Below, piece after piece: positions 36,365-46,610 of a stretch of DNA of 64,000 bases. Position 1 is the stretch's first letter; every line of letters starts with the position of its first letter. The notes below the pieces were generated by a model, which made no database searches, was not told the origin of the DNA, and was given only the letters and a program-made list of their open reading frames with translations. Origin of the DNA: an uncultured Planctomycetaceae bacterium (lineage in GTDB: Bacteria > Planctomycetota > Planctomycetia > Isosphaerales > Isosphaeraceae); contig CAWIAD010000002.1 of assembly GCA_963833985.1 (NCBI GenBank), positions 3,776,001 through 3,840,000 of the forward strand, in the 5' to 3' direction. The position numbers and the translations under genes were made by a program.

Positions 36365-39300
36365 ATGCGACGCGTGGTTCGGATCGTGATGCTCCTCGGT
36401 GTCGTTGGGGTAGCCGCAGGCATCCTGCCTCGCCGTCCGACCCCGTTCAAGCTGGCGCCGGGCTGGAAGATCGAGCTGGTTGCCGAGGCGCCGGCCATCC
36501 GCTTTCCGACGGCCATTGCCGTTGCGCCCGACGGGACGATCTACCTGGGGCAGGATCCCATGGACATGCCCGGGCCGCCAACGGTCCCGGCCGACTCCGT
36601 CGTTGCGATCAAGAACGGGCGGGTGCGGGTCTTTGCCGAGAACCTCTGGGCCGCCATGGGACTCGAGTGGGTTGAGGGCACGCTCTACGTCGTTCATGCC
36701 CCTTACCTCTCGGCGTTCCGCGACACCGACGGCGACGGCAGGGCCGATCAGCGGGTGGACCTCGTCACTGGGCTGGGGCCACCCATCCCCGGGTTCAATG
36801 GGTTGAACAACCACATTGCCTCGGGAATTCGCCTCGGGATCGACGGGTATCTCTACATCTCGATCGGAGACAAGGGCATTCCCCGAGGCGTGGGCAGGGA
36901 CGGCACGACGATCCGGCTCCACGGCGGAGGCGTCATCCGCGTGCGGCCCGACGGCAGCGGTCTGGAGGTCGTGTCGACGGGCGAGAGGAACCCCCTGTCG
37001 GTCGCCCTCAGCGATACGGACGAGATTTTCACCTACGGCAACGACGACGGCAGCAACTGGCCCAACAGCCTGACCCACCACATCGTGGGCGGGCATTACG
37101 GCTACCCCGACGAGTTCCTGGAGCATCCGGAGCGGGCACTGCCCATCATGGGAGGCCGCGTCGGCGGCGCGGGGGCCCAGGGACTGTGCTACAACGAGGA
37201 CGGCCTGGCCGAGCGCTTTCACGGCAACCTCTTCTTCTGCGACTGGGGCCGGCGCACGCTCATACGTTATGAACTGGAAAAGTGCGGAGGCACCTTCAAG
37301 GTGAAGGACCAGGAATTCGTCGTCCGCAAGGGGACGATCAACGAGTTCCGGCCGTTTTCCATAGCCGTCGGTGATGGAGGCAACTCCCTCTTCCTGGTCG
37401 ACTGGGCCTTCAGCGGGTTTCTCGTCGCCGGTCCGCAAACGGGGCGGCTGTATCGACTGACCTACACAGGCCCGGACAGCGTGCGTGCGGCGCCCCGGCC
37501 GACGGGCCCATCGGTTGCCGATCGGCTCGTGGCGCTGGATCATCCGGCACTGTCGGTCCGTCTCGCGGCTCAGCGAGCGCTGGCAGCTCAAAGCCAGGAG
37601 ACCGAGGGGCCCCTGCTGGCCAGTCTACGCGGCAGAGGTGCGCGACGTTCGCGGCTGCACGCGCTCTGGGCACTTGATGCGATTGGCACCATGGCCGCCC
37701 GGCAGGCGATCCGGGAGGCCCTGACCGATGCCGACGCCGAGATCCGCAGCCAGGCGGCCCGATCGGCCGGAATCCGCCGCGATCGGCAGCCGTCTGCGGC
37801 CCTGACCGGTCTGCTGCGGGACGCCTCTCCGATTTGCCGCCGGGCAGCGGCCATCGCGCTGGGCAGGATTGGCGATCGCGGAGTGATCTGGCCGCTCCTG
37901 GCCGCGCTTGGTGATCCGGACCCGTTCGTGGACTGGTCGATTCGCCGGGCGATTCGTGCGCTCGGAACGCCCGAGGCCGGCACGCTGGCAGACGCCCTCG
38001 TCGATCTGCGCCGCCGGGAATCGGCTCTCAGACTCTGCGACGAATGGTGGTCGGTCGTTGTAGCCAGGGCGCTCGTCATGGCGCGCGAGCGTTCGTGCGA
38101 AGCCGCCTGGCGGAGCCGGCTCGTCGCGACGCTCGCGAGCCTGTACCGCTGCTACCCGGAATGGACCGGTTACTGGTTCGGCCCCACGCCTCTGGCCGGC
38201 GAACGTCCGCGCAAAACCAGTGAATGGGAACCGGAAGGCATGACGGAAGTGTTCGAGGGTCTTGTCGCGGCCCTCGACGATCCCGCGCCTGCGGTCCGGC
38301 GCAGCGCGATCGGCGGCCTGGCGGACGTTGGCCCGCGCGCGTTGCCCCGGCTGCGAGCCGCCCTGAGGCGGGAACGCGATCCGGCGAACCTCGCCCTGCT
38401 GGTCCAGGCGATGGGACGGCTTGGCGATCGCGAGTCCGTCCCCGTGCTGAGAGGCCTGCTCAAGGATCCGCGCGGCGACGAACAGGTGCGAGCTGCCGCG
38501 CTCGATGTGATCCAGGCCGCCGGCGGGCCGAACGCCCGGGTGGTGCTGCGGGAAGTCGCCCGTGACGCGGCCGCACCCCTGCCCCTGGTGGCACGAAGCA
38601 TCTCCGCTCTCGGCCGCGAGGGATTTCTCTCCCCAGGTGAACTCGAGACGTATCTCGATCACGCTGACCCGACGATCCGTATCGCCGCGCTCACAGGGCT
38701 GGGTAGTCCCTCCACGCCGTCGATTTGCCGCGCCATCATCGGCCGGCTGGATGACCCCTGCGCCGAGGTGCGCCTGGTCGCCATCAGGAGAGCCGGCTCG
38801 CTCAAGATCCGCGCGGCCATTCCCAGGCTGCTGGAACTCTCCGGCGATGCTGCGTTTCGGGCCGAGGCGATCAGCGCCCTGGCCGCGGTTCCCGATCCGG
38901 CGGGCATGGACGTGTACCTGAAGGCCCTCGATGACCGGGCGCCCGACGTGCGACGCGCCGGCGATGCCGCATTGAACGCCATCCGTGATCTCGTCGCGGA
39001 GACCCTCAGGTCGCGAGTTCAGGGGGGCCAACTGTCGGAACAGGCCGCCCTGGCGGTGGAACGCGTCCTGGTGCAATTTCAGCCGGTCACCGAATGGAGG
39101 GTGATCGGCCCCTTCCCCAGCAACATGGGCCGGCCCTTTGCCAATCCGGATGCAATCGATTTCACCGGAAGCCACGTCGGCGCCCTGGGCCGCGTGATCG
39201 CCTGGACTGAAAGGCAAGGTGAGACGGCAACCGGGCGAGTCGTGATCGACGACCTGAAATCTCATGCAGGCGGTCGAGCGGATTCGGGATTCGACCAGCG

Positions 39301-40066
39301 CGTGTCGGCCGACCTGGCGGCCGTGGGCGTCGCCAACCTCGGCTCTGATGAGGATCGCTCGGCCTTGTTGCTGGCCGGTTCCAGCGGCACGATCACCATC
39401 ACCGTGAACGGATCGGTCGTCCTGCACACCGACAGCAACGCCGGCCGGGTGTACGCTCCCAGCTCGGATACCGCCCGGATCACGCTCAGAAAGGGATCGA
39501 ACCGGATCATGGTGCAGTCCCGGCAGGGCATCGGCGCCTGGTCATTCAGCGTCCAGGTCTCGGACAGGAGCGACCCCGGAGTTGTGATGCGAAGCGCCCC
39601 GAAGACCAGGGAATCGCTGCGCACTTATGCCCGCTCTCATGCGGGCGTCGCCATCCGCGGCGAAGCCCTCTTCTTTGACCCGAACGGGATTGGCTGCGTG
39701 AAGTGCCACACCGCTGGACGCCGCGGCTCGGCGCGCATCGGCCCGGACCTCTCCGGCTTGTCGCTCAAGTACGACCGAGAGGAGATCGTCCGCTCAGTCC
39801 TCGAGCCTTCCAGTCGCATCGCCAGCGGCTACCAGCCAGTGCTCATCGCCCGGACGGACGGCACCGTCTTGACCGGCCTGGTTCGCGGCGAGACCGCCAC
39901 CGACATCGAGCTGGTCGGCCCGGATCTGAAGCCCGTCCGCGTCTCCCTGGCCGACATCGACGAGCGGCGGACCGCGGATACCTCGCTCATGCCCGCCGGG
40001 CTCGTCGATGCCCTGTCGCCCGATGAATTTGCCGACCTGATCGCTTTTCTGGAATCGCTCAGATAG
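36365..40066 (+). CDS. PVC-type membrane-bound dehydrogenase/heme-binding protein (beta-propeller, HEAT repeats, cytochrome c)
   Basis: WKIELVAEAP, DTDGDGRAD, GIDGYLYISIGD, HEAT repeats, CVKCH..IGPDLS..SVLEPS..SLMPAG..DLIAFL. Confidence 0.9.
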   Translation: MRRVVRIVMLLGVVGVAAGILPRRPTPFKLAPGWKIELVAEAPAIRFPTAIAVAPDGTIYLGQDPMDMPGPPTVPADSVVAIKNGRVRVFAENLWAAMGLEWVEGTLYVVHAPYLSAFRDTDGDGRADQRVDLVTGLGPPIPGFNGLNNHIASGIRLGIDGYLYISIGDKGIPRGVGRDGTTIRLHGGGVIRVRPDGSGLEVVSTGERNPLSVALSDTDEIFTYGNDDGSNWPNSLTHHIVGGHYGYPDEFLEHPERALPIMGGRVGGAGAQGLCYNEDGLAERFHGNLFFCDWGRRTLIRYELEKCGGTFKVKDQEFVVRKGTINEFRPFSIAVGDGGNSLFLVDWAFSGFLVAGPQTGRLYRLTYTGPDSVRAAPRPTGPSVADRLVALDHPALSVRLAAQRALAAQSQETEGPLLASLRGRGARRSRLHALWALDAIGTMAARQAIREALTDADAEIRSQAARSAGIRRDRQPSAALTGLLRDASPICRRAAAIALGRIGDRGVIWPLLAALGDPDPFVDWSIRRAIRALGTPEAGTLADALVDLRRRESALRLCDEWWSVVVARALVMARERSCEAAWRSRLVATLASLYRCYPEWTGYWFGPTPLAGERPRKTSEWEPEGMTEVFEGLVAALDDPAPAVRRSAIGGLADVGPRALPRLRAALRRERDPANLALLVQAMGRLGDRESVPVLRGLLKDPRGDEQVRAAALDVIQAAGGPNARVVLREVARDAAAPLPLVARSISALGREGFLSPGELETYLDHADPTIRIAALTGLGSPSTPSICRAIIGRLDDPCAEVRLVAIRRAGSLKIRAAIPRLLELSGDAAFRAEAISALAAVPDPAGMDVYLKALDDRAPDVRRAGDAALNAIRDLVAETLRSRVQGGQLSEQAALAVERVLVQFQPVTEWRVIGPFPSNMGRPFANPDAIDFTGSHVGALGRVIAWTERQGETATGRVVIDDLKSHAGGRADSGFDQRVSADLAAVGVANLGSDEDRSALLLAGSSGTITITVNGSVVLHTDSNAGRVYAPSSDTARITLRKGSNRIMVQSRQGIGAWSFSVQVSDRSDPGVVMRSAPKTRESLRTYARSHAGVAIRGEALFFDPNGIGCVKCHTAGRRGSARIGPDLSGLSLKYDREEIVRSVLEPSSRIASGYQPVLIARTDGTVLTGLVRGETATDIELVGPDLKPVRVSLADIDERRTADTSLMPAGLVDALSPDEFADLIAFLESLR

Positions 40067-40520
40067 CGAACTGGTCGGTCTGGCGACCCGGCCATGGGCC
40101 GGTGCAACTCCGTCATGACGCCTGGGTTTTTTTGTGTGCGTCCGCTGAACCCCGTTCCGATCGGCGGCTCGGCTCAGCCGCCGCCACGGGGACGGTGCGC
40201 TGACATCGGGGTAGGATCGCAAACGGACAAAAACCAACGCTCGGTGCTGACCGTCGGTTCAGTAGTGTGCCCTCGGCATCGACTGAGGGACGAACGGACT
40301 TCTCAAGCGATGGGCGGGGTCAGCTAGAATCAACGACTGGTCCTCGGTGTGCATTCCTCCCTCGTGCACCGGGGGACTCGCCCTGCCGACGGGCCGGGAC
40401 TCTCGGCGACCCAGCCCGATCGCCAGGACTTGTCTCCTCTTGGGAAAAAGTTGGAGCAATCATCCTCCCCGGGCCCATTATCACCAGATGCCGAGACAAA
40501 CCGTCCGGGAGGAATGACGG

Positions 40521-42374
40521 ATGAAGGATGGTCAGCGGGCCTTTCTCCGATACATCGAGGCGCTCTTCGATGGGGGGGCGGTCGCAGAGCAGACCGATCG
40601 CCAGCTGCTCCAGGTGTTCACCGGCGGCGACCGGATGGCCGCCGAGCTGGCCTTCACGGTCCTGGTGAAGCGGCATGGCCCGATGGTCTACCGGGCCTGC
40701 CAGGCGATCCTCTCCGATCCGCACGCGGCCGAGGATGCATTCCAGGCGACCTTCCTTGTCTTGGCCCGCAAGGCGGGGGGGCTGTGGGTCCGCGGCTCGC
40801 TGGGGCCATGGCTCCTGTCCGTCGCACATCACGTCGCCCGCTGCGCCCGCGGAGGCGCGTCCCGACAGCGCGCCCACGAGCGGAGGGCCGCCGCGCTGGC
40901 GATGCCGACCGTCCGTGACGAGGCGTGGGATGATCGCGATGCCATCCTCCATGAGGAATTGCGCCGTCTGCCGGAGAGGTACCGCGCCGTGGCCATCCTC
41001 TGCGACTTGGAGGGATTGACGCAGAAGCAGGCGGCAGACCGGCTCGGCTGGCCTGACGGGACGGTCCGCAGCCGTCTGGCGCGGGCGCGGGACCGCTTGC
41101 GCGAACGCTTGACCCGGCGGGGTATGGCCCCCGCTGTCATCCCAGCGGCGCCGAGACCGTCGATCGATCAGCCGTCGGCGGCGCTGGTGCAGAGCATCGT
41201 GCAGGCCGCCCTCCGGCCCGTCTCGGGTCAGGTGCTCGGCTCAATGGAGGCGGCCGAAGTGGTTCCGGATCCTGTCGCGACCTTGGCAGAGAAAGGGATG
41301 AGGACCATGTGGCTCGCCCGATGGAAGACGCTCGCAGGCGCCCTGGTGATCCTCGGCGTCAGTACCGCCCTGGTACGGGCCTTCGCCCAGAAGCCGAAGG
41401 ACCCCGCCAGGCCGGGGGTGGCCGAGGCACAAGCCGCGGGCGCCGCGCTGCCGGCGGTCGAGGAGGGCCGGGTCACCGACACCCGTCCCGCCACCCCGCG
41501 CGTCCTTCCCGTCGCCGAGGGCGGCGTCCGGGCCGTGGCCTTCGACCCGGAGGGCCGCATCGCCGCCGGTTACGCCTTCAGCTTCCCAGCCGGCGGCCGC
41601 CCCGACCATGGCGGCGTCGTGGTCTTCGACGCGCGCGGCGAGCGGCTCCGCCACGCGCCACTGAAGCTCAAGGAGGACGAGGGCCCCGTCGTGAGCGTGG
41701 CCTTCGGCCCGGAGGGCCACATCGCCGTCGGTTACGACGACCGTATCGGTGGTGGCGGCGTGATGATCTTCGACCGAGACGGCGTTGGCGACGAGGTGAT
41801 CTTCGACCGCGCCGGCGAACGGTTCCGGCCGGGGACGCTGGACGTCAAGGAGGGCGTCGTCAAGAGCATGGCCTTCGGCCCGGAGGGCCGCATCGCCGCC
41901 AGTTATGCCAGCGGCGCTGGCTGCGGCGTGGTGCTCTTCGACGCGCGCGGCGAGCGGCTCCGCCCGGCGCCGCTGAAGGTCGATGAGGGCGAGGTCTGGG
42001 GCGTGGCCTTCGGCCTGGAGGGCCGCATCGCCGTCACTTACTCCCACGGCTTCGAGCGCGGCGGTGTGGTGCTCTTCGACGTGCGCGGCGAGCGGCTCCG
42101 CAACGCGCCGCTGAAGGTCGAGCAGGGCGAGGGCATGATCAGGGGCGTGGCGTTCGGCCCGGAGGGCCGCATAGCCGTCGGTTACGTCGGCCGCCGCCCC
42201 GACCCCAGCGGCGTCGTGCTCTTCGACGCGCGCGGCGAGCGGGTCCGCCCGGCGCCGCTGAAGGTCGATGAGGGCGAGGTCTGGGGCGTGGCCTTCGGCC
42301 TGGAGGGCCGCATCGCCGCGGGATACGAGGACACCCGCGGCAGCGGCGGTGTGGTGCTGTTCGACGCACCATGA
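40521..42374 (+). CDS. ECF sigma factor with TM helix and C-terminal six-repeat WD40-like propeller
   Basis: Region 2 ([21 protein letters not shown]), region 4 ([22 protein letters not shown]), a TM helix ([15 protein letters not shown]), and six VAF(G/D)(P/L)EG(R/H)IA..Y..GGVV.FD repeats. Confidence 0.9.
41931..42318 (+). repeat. 103-bp direct repeat (41931-42033 and 42216-42318), one mismatch
   Basis: Direct comparison of the two copies. Offset is 285 bp, equal to two propeller blades. Confidence 0.9.
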
Positions 42375-42380
42375 GACCTT

Positions 42381-42758
42381 TTATCCGCACCATGCGGATC
42401 TGCTGGCAGATCGCGCACACCAGAACCGACGCTCACCACGCTCGAACAGCCCGACGACGCGCACGAGGGTCCGGGGATCGAAGCCGGCTGAGACGCGCAC
42501 CGATCGTCCGTTGGCGAGGACGAACTCGATGCCGACCGGGGACGGCTCGGTCGTCTCGGCGAGAACATGCACGGGGAGGAAGGCGGACTGAGGCTGGTCT
42601 CGTCGCCCCAGTTCTCTGCACCACCGGTAGAACGTCATCGGGTTGAGGCTCTCAGCCCCGCAGAACGCCCGGACGGATAGACCACTTCGCTTCCAACGGG
42701 CGATGGCCTGCCGCCAGTACGGCACGCGGCTCGGTCGCCCGCGTACGGTCTTGGCCAT
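42381..42758 (-). CDS. tnpA: IS66 accessory protein TnpA (HTH)
   Basis: WRQAIARWKRSGLSVRAFC...FYRW, FLPVHV and IEFVLANGRSVRV..GFD motifs. No tnpB or tnpC follows. Confidence 0.85.
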   Translation of the reverse strand: MAKTVRGRPSRVPYWRQAIARWKRSGLSVRAFCGAESLNPMTFYRWCRELGRRDQPQSAFLPVHVLAETTEPSPVGIEFVLANGRSVRVSAGFDPRTLVRVVGLFERGERRFWCARSASRSAWCG

Positions 42759-42840
42759 GGTACACCCCCTCTCGGCCGTGCCGTGATCGTGGCATGGGCC
42801 GCAAGAAGGGGGTCACCGAACGCACACGTTTTTTTTGAGG

Positions 42841-44151
42841 TTACGGCAGCGAAGGCTCGGGCCTGGCTTGCTCGGGCTGCGGCGATTTCTTGACCAGCTC
42901 GAGTGCCTTGTCGATCAGGATCTCGCCGGTCATCTCGCCCAGGGATGTACGGGAGATGTAGTCGTAGCGGGGGAAGCTCTGAAAGTCGACCTTCGTCAGG
43001 ATGTAGCCGAATGCGTCGTTGGTCAGGCCGAACAGAAAGTTCGGTTCACCGCGCATCTTCCGCTTGAGATAAAAGCCGATGTTGGGCAGGGCCTCACCGG
43101 GAATGGTGAGGATCTGAGCGCTGCCCACGTTCACCAGGTTGATCCGGGTCGTGATCGAGCGGTCGTGGTTGTACGGATACTTGAGTGGCGAGCCCGTCAC
43201 CACGGCCCACATGGCGTCCGACTGGACCGGAAACCGCACCGAGAGGGAGTCGCAGAAGAGGTCAGGGGCCGGCTGGACCGGGGCATCGCGCACGATCCGG
43301 AGGGCCTCGCCGGCCATCAACTTGCCGATCCTCAGGCACTCCTCCCAGGTACGGGCGTCATGCCAGTAGCCGCGCTGGCTGTCCCGGGGTTGGTCGAGCA
43401 TGCGGTTGTCGGCCGTGACCATTCCGCCCTGGGCGCTGTTCATGAACAGGCCCATCCCTCCTTCGCGAGCCTTGATCTCGTCATACAGCGGACCAACCAG
43501 GTCGGGGCTGCAAATGCCGATATCGTTGCCCAGCACTTCGGGATGGACCGCGTAGTTGACCAGTGTGGCAATGGCCTTGCCATCGCGGCCGAGGGCCTGG
43601 ATCACGTTCATCCGCCGGTCGTAGAGATCGGGTGCGTAGTAGTTGTATGCGATCTTCCCCTGCGCCTCGCCGCTGGCGATCCTCAGCGCCGCGGGCTGGA
43701 GGCGGTCGGCAGCCTCGTTGATCGCGGCTGCCGTCAGGTCGCAGACGCGTTGGATGTAATCCAGATCGCCCGTATGTCCGCCCTTGCCATCGGGGAAAGC
43801 GTAGCATTCCGGAGCGCTATGGGTGTGCGTCGAGCCGATCAGGATGTTCGCGGCCGGAATGCGATCCACCTTTTGCCGAACTCGATCGCACAGTACCGAT
43901 GGGAAACCGAGCAGGTCCAGCGAGACGATGGCCACGGAGACGCCCGAGTGGCGCAGCACGAGCGCCCGGGCCGTGAGCTCGCCCCGTGTTTCCGTTGCGG
44001 GCCTGGGCACTCCCATACCTCCCGAAATGGGCAAGAGCGGCCGAGGCGTGATCGACCGCGAGGCTGCACCAACTTCCAGTTCACCGCGAGCGATGGAGGT
44101 GTGAACGCAGGCACAGAGGAATAGGCAAGCCACGGGAAGTCTTAGTAACAT
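42841..44151 (-). CDS. Neutral/alkaline ceramidase-like amidohydrolase, exported
   Basis: LEVGAA..ITP, LTARALVL, STHTHSAP, NYAVHP and TIPGE motifs. Signal peptide. Confidence 0.75.
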   Translation of the reverse strand: MLLRLPVACLFLCACVHTSIARGELEVGAASRSITPRPLLPISGGMGVPRPATETRGELTARALVLRHSGVSVAIVSLDLLGFPSVLCDRVRQKVDRIPAANILIGSTHTHSAPECYAFPDGKGGHTGDLDYIQRVCDLTAAAINEAADRLQPAALRIASGEAQGKIAYNYYAPDLYDRRMNVIQALGRDGKAIATLVNYAVHPEVLGNDIGICSPDLVGPLYDEIKAREGGMGLFMNSAQGGMVTADNRMLDQPRDSQRGYWHDARTWEECLRIGKLMAGEALRIVRDAPVQPAPDLFCDSLSVRFPVQSDAMWAVVTGSPLKYPYNHDRSITTRINLVNVGSAQILTIPGEALPNIGFYLKRKMRGEPNFLFGLTNDAFGYILTKVDFQSFPRYDYISRTSLGEMTGEILIDKALELVKKSPQPEQARPEPSLP

Positions 44152-44237
44152 CGGTAGAGGCTCCGAGATGTAGAAAGCCGGATTGGCCGACCATCTTACG
44201 AGCTCGAACGTCGGCTGCCACGGGGAGAAACGAAAAA

Positions 44238-46610
44238 ATGGCCAGTCCCGGGGGAAGTCGGCACCCTGAGCCGGCTGGCCAAGAATCCGCGGAGACGAAG
44301 AGCGTCGCACAGCGGCTCTGCGTGCTGGGGCGGGTGCAGGGCGTGGGCTTCCGCCCGTTCGTGGTGCGGCTGGCGGCGGGTCTGAGGCTGGGCGGCTGGG
44401 TCAAGAATACGCCCGACGGAGTGGTGATTCATATCGAGGGGCCCGAGGTCCCACTTGCCGACTTTCGACGGCGGCTGACCGGCGAGCTGCCGCCTGCCGC
44501 CGAGGTCCTGTCGGTCACGGTCGAGGACACACTTCCCGAAGGCCATCGCGGCTTCGCCATCCGCCGGAGCGACGAGATTGGCTCCGCCGGCAAGCCCGGC
44601 GCCGGAGCCTTACTCCGAGTGCTCATCACGCCCGACCTGGCGGCCTGCCCGGCCTGCCTGGCGGAGTTCCACTCCGCAGAGGATCGCCGGCATGGCTTTG
44701 CCCTTTCCGGCTGCACCGATTGCGGGCCGAGGTTCAGCATCCAGGTTTCCGCCCCGTTCGACCGCGAGCGGACGACGATGATCGATTTCCTCCTTTGCCC
44801 GGACTGCCAGAAGGAATATGAGGACCCCGCCGACCGACGATTTCACGCACAGAATACCTCCTGCCCGCGGTGCGGCCCACGCATCTGGCTGGAGCCCGGC
44901 GGCGCTCCACACTCCTTGCCGCAGCCGGCTCCTGAACCAGCCGACACGTCGGATTTCCCGGTGCTGGAGCAAGCCGCGCGGCAATTGCGTGAGGGAAAGA
45001 TCCTGGCCGTCAAGGGAATTGGCGGCTTTCACCTGCTCTGCGACGCGACGTCGGAACAGGCCGTCACCCTGCTCCGCGAGCGTAAGCGGCGCGATCGTAA
45101 GCCCCTGGCGGTGCTGTTTGGAAATCTCGAGGAGATCGGTGCACACGCCGAGGTCGACGAGGCCGCGCGCGCCGCGCTGCTGAGCGCGGAGGCGCCCATT
45201 GTGCTGCTCAGCGCCGGGCCGATTCGACCCTGGCGTCCGGCGTGGCACCCGGGCTGGCCAGCGTCGGCGTCTTCATTGCCTACACGCCACTGCACCGGGC
45301 CCTGGTGCAGATGGTCGGCCGGCCGCTGGTGGCGACGAGCGGAAACCCGAGCGACGAACCGATGCCGACCGAGAACGCCGCGGCGCGTGCCGAGCTCGGA
45401 CATATCGCGGATGCGTTCGTCCTCCACAACCGCCGGATTCTCCGCCATGCCGATGACTGCCTGGTGCGGATCATCGCCGGGCGGCCGGTGCCGATCCGGG
45501 TCGGCCGTGGGCTGGCCCCGGTGCGCATCGAGCTACCGTTCGAGCCCCCCGCACTGCTTGCCACCGGGGGCCACTTGAAGGCAGCGATTGCCTTCACGCG
45601 CGGCCGCGAGCTTTTTCTGGGACAGCATATCGGTGATCTCGATACGCCCGGCGCGGAATCGCTATGTCGAGAACGTCGCCGACCTGACCGCGCTCTTCGG
45701 AGTGGCCCCCGCGTTCATCGTGCACGACGCCCACCCCGACTATTTCACGACCCGATATGCCAGCGAGCAGCCACTGCCTGCCGTGACCATCCAGCATCAC
45801 CACGCCCATATCATGGCCTGCCTGGCCGAGTACGGTGCGCACGGCCCGGCGCTGGGGATTGCATGGGACGGCACGGGCTACGGAAGCGACGGATCGATCT
45901 GGGGCGGAGAATTCCTGAAAGTGGACGGAGCCCGGTTCCAGCGGGTGGGATCAATCTGGCCGTTCTCGCTGGTGGGCGGGGACCGGGCCGCCCGCGAGCC
46001 GAGGCGGTGTGCCGCCGGCGTCTGTTTCGCCGCCGGCGAACCGTTCCCCGAGAACCAGGGGTTTTCCACCGCCGAGCAGGCGCTGCTGACCTCCGCTCTG
46101 CGTTCGCCGCGGGCCAGTTCGGTGACAACCAGCGCAGGCCGGCTCTTCGACGCCTGGGCTTCGCTGCTCGGCATCGCCCAGCGCTCGGCCTACGAGGCAG
46201 AGGCCGCCATGCGATTTGAGGACCTGGCCGACCCGTCGGAGCAGGGAGCCTTTGACAACATCGCTGTCCAGCATGCCGGTTCCGATGCCGGCTTGCCCTA
46301 TCGCCTGGACTGGCGACCCTGGGTGTCTGAAACCCGGCAGAGACTGGCTGCGGGGCACACGGCGTCGAGTATTGCCGCCTATTTCCACAACTCCCTGGCG
46401 ATCGGGTGTCTCGAGATCGCGCGTCGCGTGGGGCTGGAGACTGTCGCGCTGGGGGGTGGCTGCTTTCAGAACCGGCTGCTGAGCGAGCGGGTGGCCGGCA
46501 TGCTGCAAGCCGACGGATTTCGTGTACTCGCGCCGCACCGGGTGCCCCCGGGTGATGGCGGTCTGGCCGTTGGCCAGGTCTGGGCAGCGGCGCTGCAACT
46601 CATGCAATGA
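44238..46610 (+). CDS. hypF: Carbamoyltransferase HypF (frameshifts near 45210 and 45655)
   Basis: Acylphosphatase domain GRVQGVGFRPFV, Zn fingers CPAC/CTDC/CPDC/CPRC, RRFHAQ, KGIGGFHL, ATSGN, QHIGDL, HDAHPDY, QHHHAH, DGTGYG, TTSAGRLFD and PPGDGGLAVGQ. Confidence 0.92.

Follow-up and report, generated by a model that had tools for sequence, protein, structure and literature searches.

Insertion sequences (ISs) of the IS66 family are known as three-gene elements (tnpA-tnpB-tnpC), and the accessible part of one description (PMC3281130) lists members with 8-bp repeats whose lengths are 2731 and 2829 bp. [quoted passage not shown] Extracytoplasmic function (ECF) sigma factors of family ECF57 possess, according to the accessible parts of PMC7826278 and PMC8999054, a sigma2/sigma4 core with Cys in each domain and a C-terminal extension with about two membrane helices, to which a WD40-like propeller is added in a subset of members. 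Planctomycetes carry very many ECF sigma factors. We analysed a stretch of 64,000 nucleotides (hereafter the window; positions 3,776,001 to 3,840,000 of contig CAWIAD010000002.1, assembly GCA_963833985.1) from an uncultured Planctomycetaceae bacterium, whose genome is represented by two contigs totalling 10.16 Mb, and found there a 2694-bp unit in which an ECF57-like sigma factor gene is bracketed by Tn3-family ends, themselves nested in IS66 ends. This feature is real, and the unit is an IS66 derivative, though not a functional IS66.

The unit occupies positions 40134-42827, its terminal inverted repeats are identical at 17 of 20 positions, and an exact 8-bp direct repeat (8/8) encloses it between convergent host genes, just as an earlier examination of the letters alone (the sequence-only reading) had proposed. 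Its components, from left to right, are the following:

40126..40133, left copy of the target duplication, 8 bp, matching the right copy at 8/8 positions
40134..40207, minus strand, IS66 right end, 74 bp in all with the terminal repeat included (83% over 78 bp to L084, 83% over 77 bp to L088)
40208..40244, plus strand, whole Tn3-family terminal inverted repeat, one G shorter than that of relatives, its tip abutting the IS66 right-end segment
40245..40277, plus strand, subterminal box of a cargo-side ("A") Tn3 end
40377..40520, plus strand, leader shared, in conserved form, with related ECF genes
40521..42374, plus strand, gene of an ECF57-like sigma factor of 617 aa (Pfam sigma70 r2 and r4_2 over cut-off)
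42381..42758, minus strand, IS66 tnpA, an open reading frame (ORF) of 125 aa composed of 108 IS66 codons and a 17-residue foreign tail (profile match and alignment to L084)
42392..42437, minus strand, second Tn3 "A" end, truncated to its subterminal box, with the terminal repeat lost and the remainder joined to IS66 tnpA (local alignment scores)
42436..42827, minus strand, IS66 left arm (identity to L084 85% across 392 bp), which comprises tnpA, a leader and the terminal repeat
42828..42835, right copy of the target duplication, 8 bp, the right host gene having its stop codon 5 bp away

Inverted repeats and a flanking duplication are not sufficient by themselves for the recognition of such elements. 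A filter demanding an inverted repeat of at least 16/20 and a direct repeat of at least 5 bp within 7 kb was passed by 4 of 44 ECF loci and by 7 of 150 random control loci, which is the range of chance, and two of the four ECF loci lie near no mapped IS66 or Tn3 mark, so that repeat-plus-duplication statistics were rejected as proof. The element is proven because its arms are homologous to complete IS66 elements. The closest of these (L084) matches the ends and tnpA at 83-85%, with no comparable match to the unit between its two matching arms, and this supports the IS66 origin of ends, duplication and tnpA that had been suspected from the letters. The product of tnpA scores 65.9 bits against the profile of the IS66 accessory TnpA (NF047593; cut-off 28); its 108 codons are kept at 82% identity to the TnpA of L084, the last four codons are gone, and the frame runs on for 17 residues into the Tn3 remnant. 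Autonomous elements with such ends, expected by the sequence-only reading, do exist in relatives: 32 of the 121 family genomes contain the IS66 end pattern (1 for the reversed-pattern control), and nine three-gene elements possess both ends within 2693-2711 bp (L023, L024, L025 twice, L026, L084, L088, L089 and L090). Some of the nine carry a frameshifted tnpC; in L024, Pfam confirms TnpB (PF05717) and TnpC (PF03050). The target duplication is complete (8/8) in two of them, 7/8 in one and without a match in register in six. Compared with these elements, the unit retains the ends, the 8-bp duplication and tnpA, but it is devoid of tnpB and tnpC, its tnpA is four codons short, and 2.2 kb of foreign DNA lie inside. 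No match to tnpB or tnpC was found inside the unit, and the remaining genome yielded no tnpB and no cognate tnpC. It does contain a decayed left-end relic of this IS66 clade (C1:562338-562628), and its sole intact IS66-family transposase belongs to a single-ORF element (L001, 478 aa; C2:2576.7-2578.2 kb), which we take to be ISBst12-like, with its own ends and 8-bp duplication. This single-ORF element was rejected as a cognate helper, since its ends differ from those of the unit. Deletion and miniature derivatives were also seen (L149, L148, L098, L128 and L131), measuring 301 and 741 bp for the IS66 clade and 295-681 bp for the Tn3 clade.

The sequence-only reading had found nothing but tnpA and the sigma gene between the ends; both are present, the latter on the opposite strand and with sigma70 r2 and r4_2 scoring over Pfam cut-offs, but two Tn3-family ends lie inside as well. 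IS66 homology stops at 40208, exactly at the GGGG tip that opens the 37-bp Tn3 motif. The same motif adjoins Tn3 transposase remnants at two further places in the genome and terminates complete Tn3 elements of relatives (L037 and L124), which encode a PF01526 transposase and a tyrosine recombinase; altogether it was detected in 42 of 121 genomes (control 0), and exact 5-bp duplications flank 3 of 10 inverted Tn3 repeat pairs. In the complete elements the subterminal box sits at the cargo-side end. When the segment 42392-42437 was aligned with eight Tn3 cargo-side ends, local scores of 22-48 were obtained, seven of the eight exceeding all 500 shuffles and the eighth being reached by 3 of 500, whereas its scores against five tnpB starts (14-16) are at chance level, for which reason its interpretation as a decayed tnpB start was rejected. 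Because this box matches Tn3 "A" ends and its other occurrences among the fetched loci, one weak match excepted, lie directly inside a Tn3 repeat, the sigma gene has a Tn3 end on either side. The inner part of the Tn3 repeat and the subterminal box (region 40208-40277) form an 11-6-11 palindrome, a layout that we assume to be that of a recombinase site. The IS66/Tn3 fusion junction coincides with the palindrome spacer, and no evident matching partner site is seen in tnpA; it is speculation that the palindrome may serve a tyrosine recombinase and that the fusion may be a product of this enzyme. Dating of the two layers by the 1-bp gap in the Tn3 repeat was rejected, as the gap falls in a run of G and may be an assembly error.

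In terms of described classes, the inner cassette resembles MICs and TIMEs in having a passenger between IS-related repeats of Tn3 type and no transposase, and the Tn3 repeat clade of the window does form such cassettes (L129, with a 5-bp duplication). The window cassette differs from them by the loss of one Tn3 repeat, by having two cargo-side ends and by its nesting in IS66 ends; neither a cognate transposase nor several copies, which are expected of a MIC, were found. Of the attributes of a Tn3 element, the left end displays the approximately 38-bp GGGG-tip repeat linked to Tn3 transposases, while two complete repeats and a 5-bp duplication are not there. Besides L129, the genome of the window has its own cargo carrier of this clade without a functional transposase gene (L042, C2:2229490-2235182), where a 5-bp duplication, a transposase remnant and a tyrosine recombinase accompany a gene for a 1364-aa TIR-nSTAND1-TPR protein, possibly a defence protein. 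The outer layer is comparable to tIS and IS-driven composites, as a passenger gene resides between the ends of an IS derivative, but the window unit has no transposase, and its passenger is a signalling sigma factor that came with the ends of a second transposon family. Thus, the architecture is within known classes (passenger-carrying IS, MIC, composite), and what is new is the type of cargo, the IS66/Tn3 nesting and the recurrence. A literature search that left most subscription journals outside brought up no title or abstract in which IS66 or Tn3 elements of planctomycetes are described as carrying an ECF gene.

The cargo itself appears to fit the description of ECF57. Conserved domains place sigma2 at residues 48-106 and sigma4 at 142-195 (PF04542, PF08281 and TIGR02937 over cut-off), followed by a hydrophobic helix at 271-289 and six beta-propeller repeats at about 327-617. 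Cys60 and Cys161 are invariant in four of four aligned sequences, an alignment that includes no named ECF57 members. The core, the Cys residues and the C-terminal extension with membrane helix and WD40-like repeats are all shared with the family; the protein deviates in having one clear helix versus about two, with hydropathy reaching 1.96 at 271-289, while a segment near 238 scores 1.7-2.0 in three homologues and at most 1.03 in the window protein. A single helix would leave the propeller facing outward, and a pair of helices would leave it facing the cytoplasm. The Pfam WD40 match of the repeats (20.9 bits) is below cut-off; Foldseek matches them to WD40/NHL propellers (E about 1e-13), the AlphaFold model having a predicted local distance difference test (pLDDT) score of 75-90 over 451-617 and being unreliable at 1-137 and 205-323. 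The sigma factor would stay anchored at the membrane until binding of a signal by the propeller sets it free, probably through proteolysis, as has been proposed for other members; membrane release is the mechanism put forward for ECF57 in the accessible text of PMC7826278.

The gene reads as a domain mosaic at the sequence level. Over nucleotides 1-916, its first 305 codons, it shares 82% identity with ECF genes of G069 and G080 with another C-terminus, and its nucleotides 1089-1847 are 71% identical, as DNA, to the repeats of CHAT-nSTAND1-WD40 proteins, in one of which (L086) the repeats likewise come after a hydrophobic segment; this composition and the transposon boundaries set the gene apart from described ECF57. 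Since full-length sigma-propeller homologues are present in other samples (three were aligned, with identities of 77-88%), the gene is not confined to this genome. Three of the full-length homologues occupy contigs of 2628-2978 bp; DNA around these and further homologues (P0001, P0006, P0014, P0070 and others) was found in none of the metagenome, genome-collection and viral scans, and the plasmid collection gave no match. A repeat-domain search of the own genome revealed no homologue elsewhere, a weak test given that the query also missed itself, and blastn of the genome returned repeat-region matches at the window locus only. Upstream, a two-block motif at about 40444-40482, conserved ahead of seven related ECF genes including this one, is a candidate promoter; neither a sigma-70 consensus promoter nor a terminator was found. 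ECF genes sharing the N-terminal part of the window sigma factor (L077, L078, L079 and L030, in G080, G069 and G020) sit between copies of an approximately 28-bp repeat, which recurs between short genes in arrays resembling cassette arrays, G080 having two near-identical copies; in the genome of the window this repeat was not found at up to 5 mismatches.

When another 58 loci (40 + 18) excised around IS66 ends were examined, six outer end pairs were seen to enclose foreign DNA, two of them with ECF genes, in agreement with the earlier expectation of sister elements bearing other cargo:

L147 (G086:C2:3927441-3933869), 6429 bp, duplication 7/8, ECF and kinase cargo
L164, 5223 bp, duplication 8/8, 3' end of tnpC kept with cargo behind it, tnpB lost
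L173, 6169 bp, duplication 8/8, whole IS66 with cargo and an extra right end
L155, 6821 bp, duplication 8/8, nested IS pair inside tnpC
L190, 9425 bp, duplication 7/8, nested insertion into the IS66 clade
G074:C9:5-9717, duplication at 4/4 visible bases with the rest hidden by the contig start, ECF57-like cargo

L147 has the same layout as the window unit: tnpA, tnpB and the start of tnpC are retained, and a TIGR02999 ECF gene and a Ser/Thr kinase gene read inward from a 95-bp right end. The ECF and Ser/Thr kinase-WD40 operon replaces tnpC there, and the insertion directly follows a cluster of type I restriction-like genes. In G074:C9, a whole IS66 is followed by an ECF57-like gene with a frameshift and by a thioredoxin-like gene. 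Duplications in L173 and G074:C9 are confined to the outer ends (8/8 at the outer and 3/8 at the inner ends in the former, 4/4 visible and 0/4 in the latter), and since such a pattern is the product of composite transposition, both are composites using a distal right end, of the kind known for IS-driven transposons. With a base rate of 2-4% derived from the 59 ECF loci detected in the genome of the window, two ECF-bearing units out of six give P of 0.006-0.06 by the rate assumed, a hint of enrichment, the rate being taken from another genome where ECF genes are undercounted. A second ECF gene of the window's own genome lies inside a defective Tn3 (L143, C1:2135698-2140378), the repeats of which match at 20/20 and are accompanied by a 5-bp duplication; there, a 620-aa ECF sigma factor fused to an RND adaptor domain is accompanied by a truncated Tn3 transposase. 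An apparently frameshifted serine-resolvase-like gene is also noticeable there by eye. In L197 (G032:C36), an ECF57-like gene begins just outside an IS66 left end, which suggests that IS66 insertions near ECF leaders present an opportunity for capture.

How could the tnpB-tnpC region of an IS66 come to be replaced by a sigma gene? The order of events that we favour, with a confidence that stands about midway between belief and disbelief, is that the unit arrived as a loaded, self-mobile IS66 and was stranded later by deletion. A complete IS66 would first have received, beyond its tnpC stop and at 74 bp from its right end, a Tn3-ended cassette with the sigma gene and its leader, an insertion that spared the transposase genes as well as the two IS66 ends; the loaded element, of about 5 kb or more, would then have used its own TnpABC to enter the intergenic site, creating the duplication; and a single deletion, between the spacer of the second Tn3 end and the final tnpA codons, would have taken away tnpB and tnpC together with the outer Tn3 repeat. 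The nested Tn3 ends explain the capture of the cargo. Behind the tnpC stop there are 197-200 bp, or about 6% of the element, and the insertion point falls among these; this position argues for a loaded hop because it is the only place that leaves the IS66 mobile. The deletion junction has a few bases of microhomology. Sister units L173, G074:C9, L164 and L147 support this order because they exhibit loaded elements and partial decay, and recent exchange of IS66 between planctomycete plasmids and chromosomes, reported in the accessible part of a preprint (bioRxiv 10.1101/2024.01.22.576637), lends indirect support. As both ends are intact, the unit could in principle be mobilised by a cognate IS66 that reached the genome later, none being present there.

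Several observations weigh against this order, which is deduced from one copy. The inner cassette has no second terminal repeat, only the box being left, hence no second tip at which a 5-bp duplication could be seen, and two cargo-side Tn3 ends facing each other occur in no other fetched locus. The length of the unit (2694 bp) falls inside the span of complete clade elements, a coincidence for which the proposed events give no explanation. L155 demonstrates that cargo may enter these IS66 elements by nested insertion inside tnpC, that is, in place. Neither a loaded undeleted form nor a second copy was found in 120 family genomes, with two candidates scored per genome. No empty site came to light either: of 19 loci with orthologues of the right host gene, none has the left host gene or an ECF57 orthologue in its flanks of 1.5 kb, L008 containing a distant sigma factor of 26% identity.

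Assembly in place is a somewhat less probable course, in which an ordinary IS66 inserted first and produced the duplication, a Tn3-ended sigma cassette followed, and tnpB-tnpC was deleted, so that the sigma gene was transported by Tn3 ends and never by IS66 ends. It needs the same three events as the order favoured above and agrees with the single copy of the unit, with the nested insertions into this IS66 clade in L155 and L190, and with the defective Tn3 elements of the genome, one of which has the same repeat type. Yet the cassette would have had to strike, in a genome of 10.2 Mb, a solitary IS of 2.7 kb and, moreover, the 6% of it behind tnpC, and two independent insertions within 2.7 kb of ordinary chromosome are unlikely; the missing homologue of the sigma repeat domain elsewhere in the genome speaks in the same direction, with the weakness of a query that overlooked itself.

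The sequence-only reading had assumed that the unit moved as one piece by means of a transposase supplied in trans, meaning that the deleted 2.7-kb form seen today arose at another place and came here as a non-autonomous cassette served by external TnpBC. In favour of this, both ends and the duplication are intact; the relic at C1:562338-562628 represents a former second copy of the clade in the lineage; relatives hold the 741-bp deletion derivative (duplication 7/8) and the 301-bp miniature; and the three sigma-propeller homologues on contigs of 2628-2978 bp are compatible with it, contig sizes being only a hint. This movement was nevertheless not borne out, as the 8-bp duplication dates the use of the IS66 ends only and not the content between them at that time, the genome has no cognate tnpB or tnpC, its only intact IS66-family transposase has different ends, and no further copy was found in it or, with the scoring mentioned, in the 120 family genomes; we regard it as improbable. 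An assembly artefact, with junctions joining DNA that is non-contiguous in the cell, might be suspected from the fused TnpA being a cluster of one in the protein collection and from a unit length within a few bases of that of complete elements, but it is very improbable, since the IS66 arms and Tn3 ends are not near-identical repeats in the genome and leave nothing to collapse on, while a transposon tip coincides precisely with one of the junctions and the duplication has no mismatch.

The host genes on either side are ordinary chromosomal ones and lie outside the element:

36365..40066, plus strand, left host gene, 1233 aa, with DUF7133, HEAT repeats and a cytochrome c motif
42841..44310, minus strand, right host gene, 489 aa, with a weak N-terminal match to neutral ceramidase

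Farther to the right (44238-46610), a gene broken across two frames and a gene behind it are presumably hypF-like and hypE-like, respectively, the names being given from the translation by eye. This break is possibly an assembly indel error, for which reason the length of the T run in the duplication may be uncertain as well.

According to the accessible text of PMC7826278, a planctomycete genome has about 5.3 ECF57 members. In the genome of the window we count 44 ECF57-like loci, and transposon ends are verified at two of them; transposition as an explanation of the ECF expansion, suggested by the sequence-only reading, is thus correct insofar as transposon-bounded ECF genes exist, whereas the link to the expansion is weak. 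We consider it doubtful that, throughout the family, IS66 and Tn3 elements routinely move ECF modules and join them to STAND-type sensor repeats, being, with sensor swapping, a main source of the large and diverse ECF57 repertoires, the ends having been lost in most older cases. Four transposon-bounded ECF modules are at hand, namely the window unit, the second ECF gene of the same genome in its Tn3, and two IS66-bounded units in other genera. Such modules are a concrete and countable route to gain a self-contained regulator and to swap its sensor, and the transposon-bounded sigma genes of relatives suggest that this is one route by which these bacteria gain regulators.

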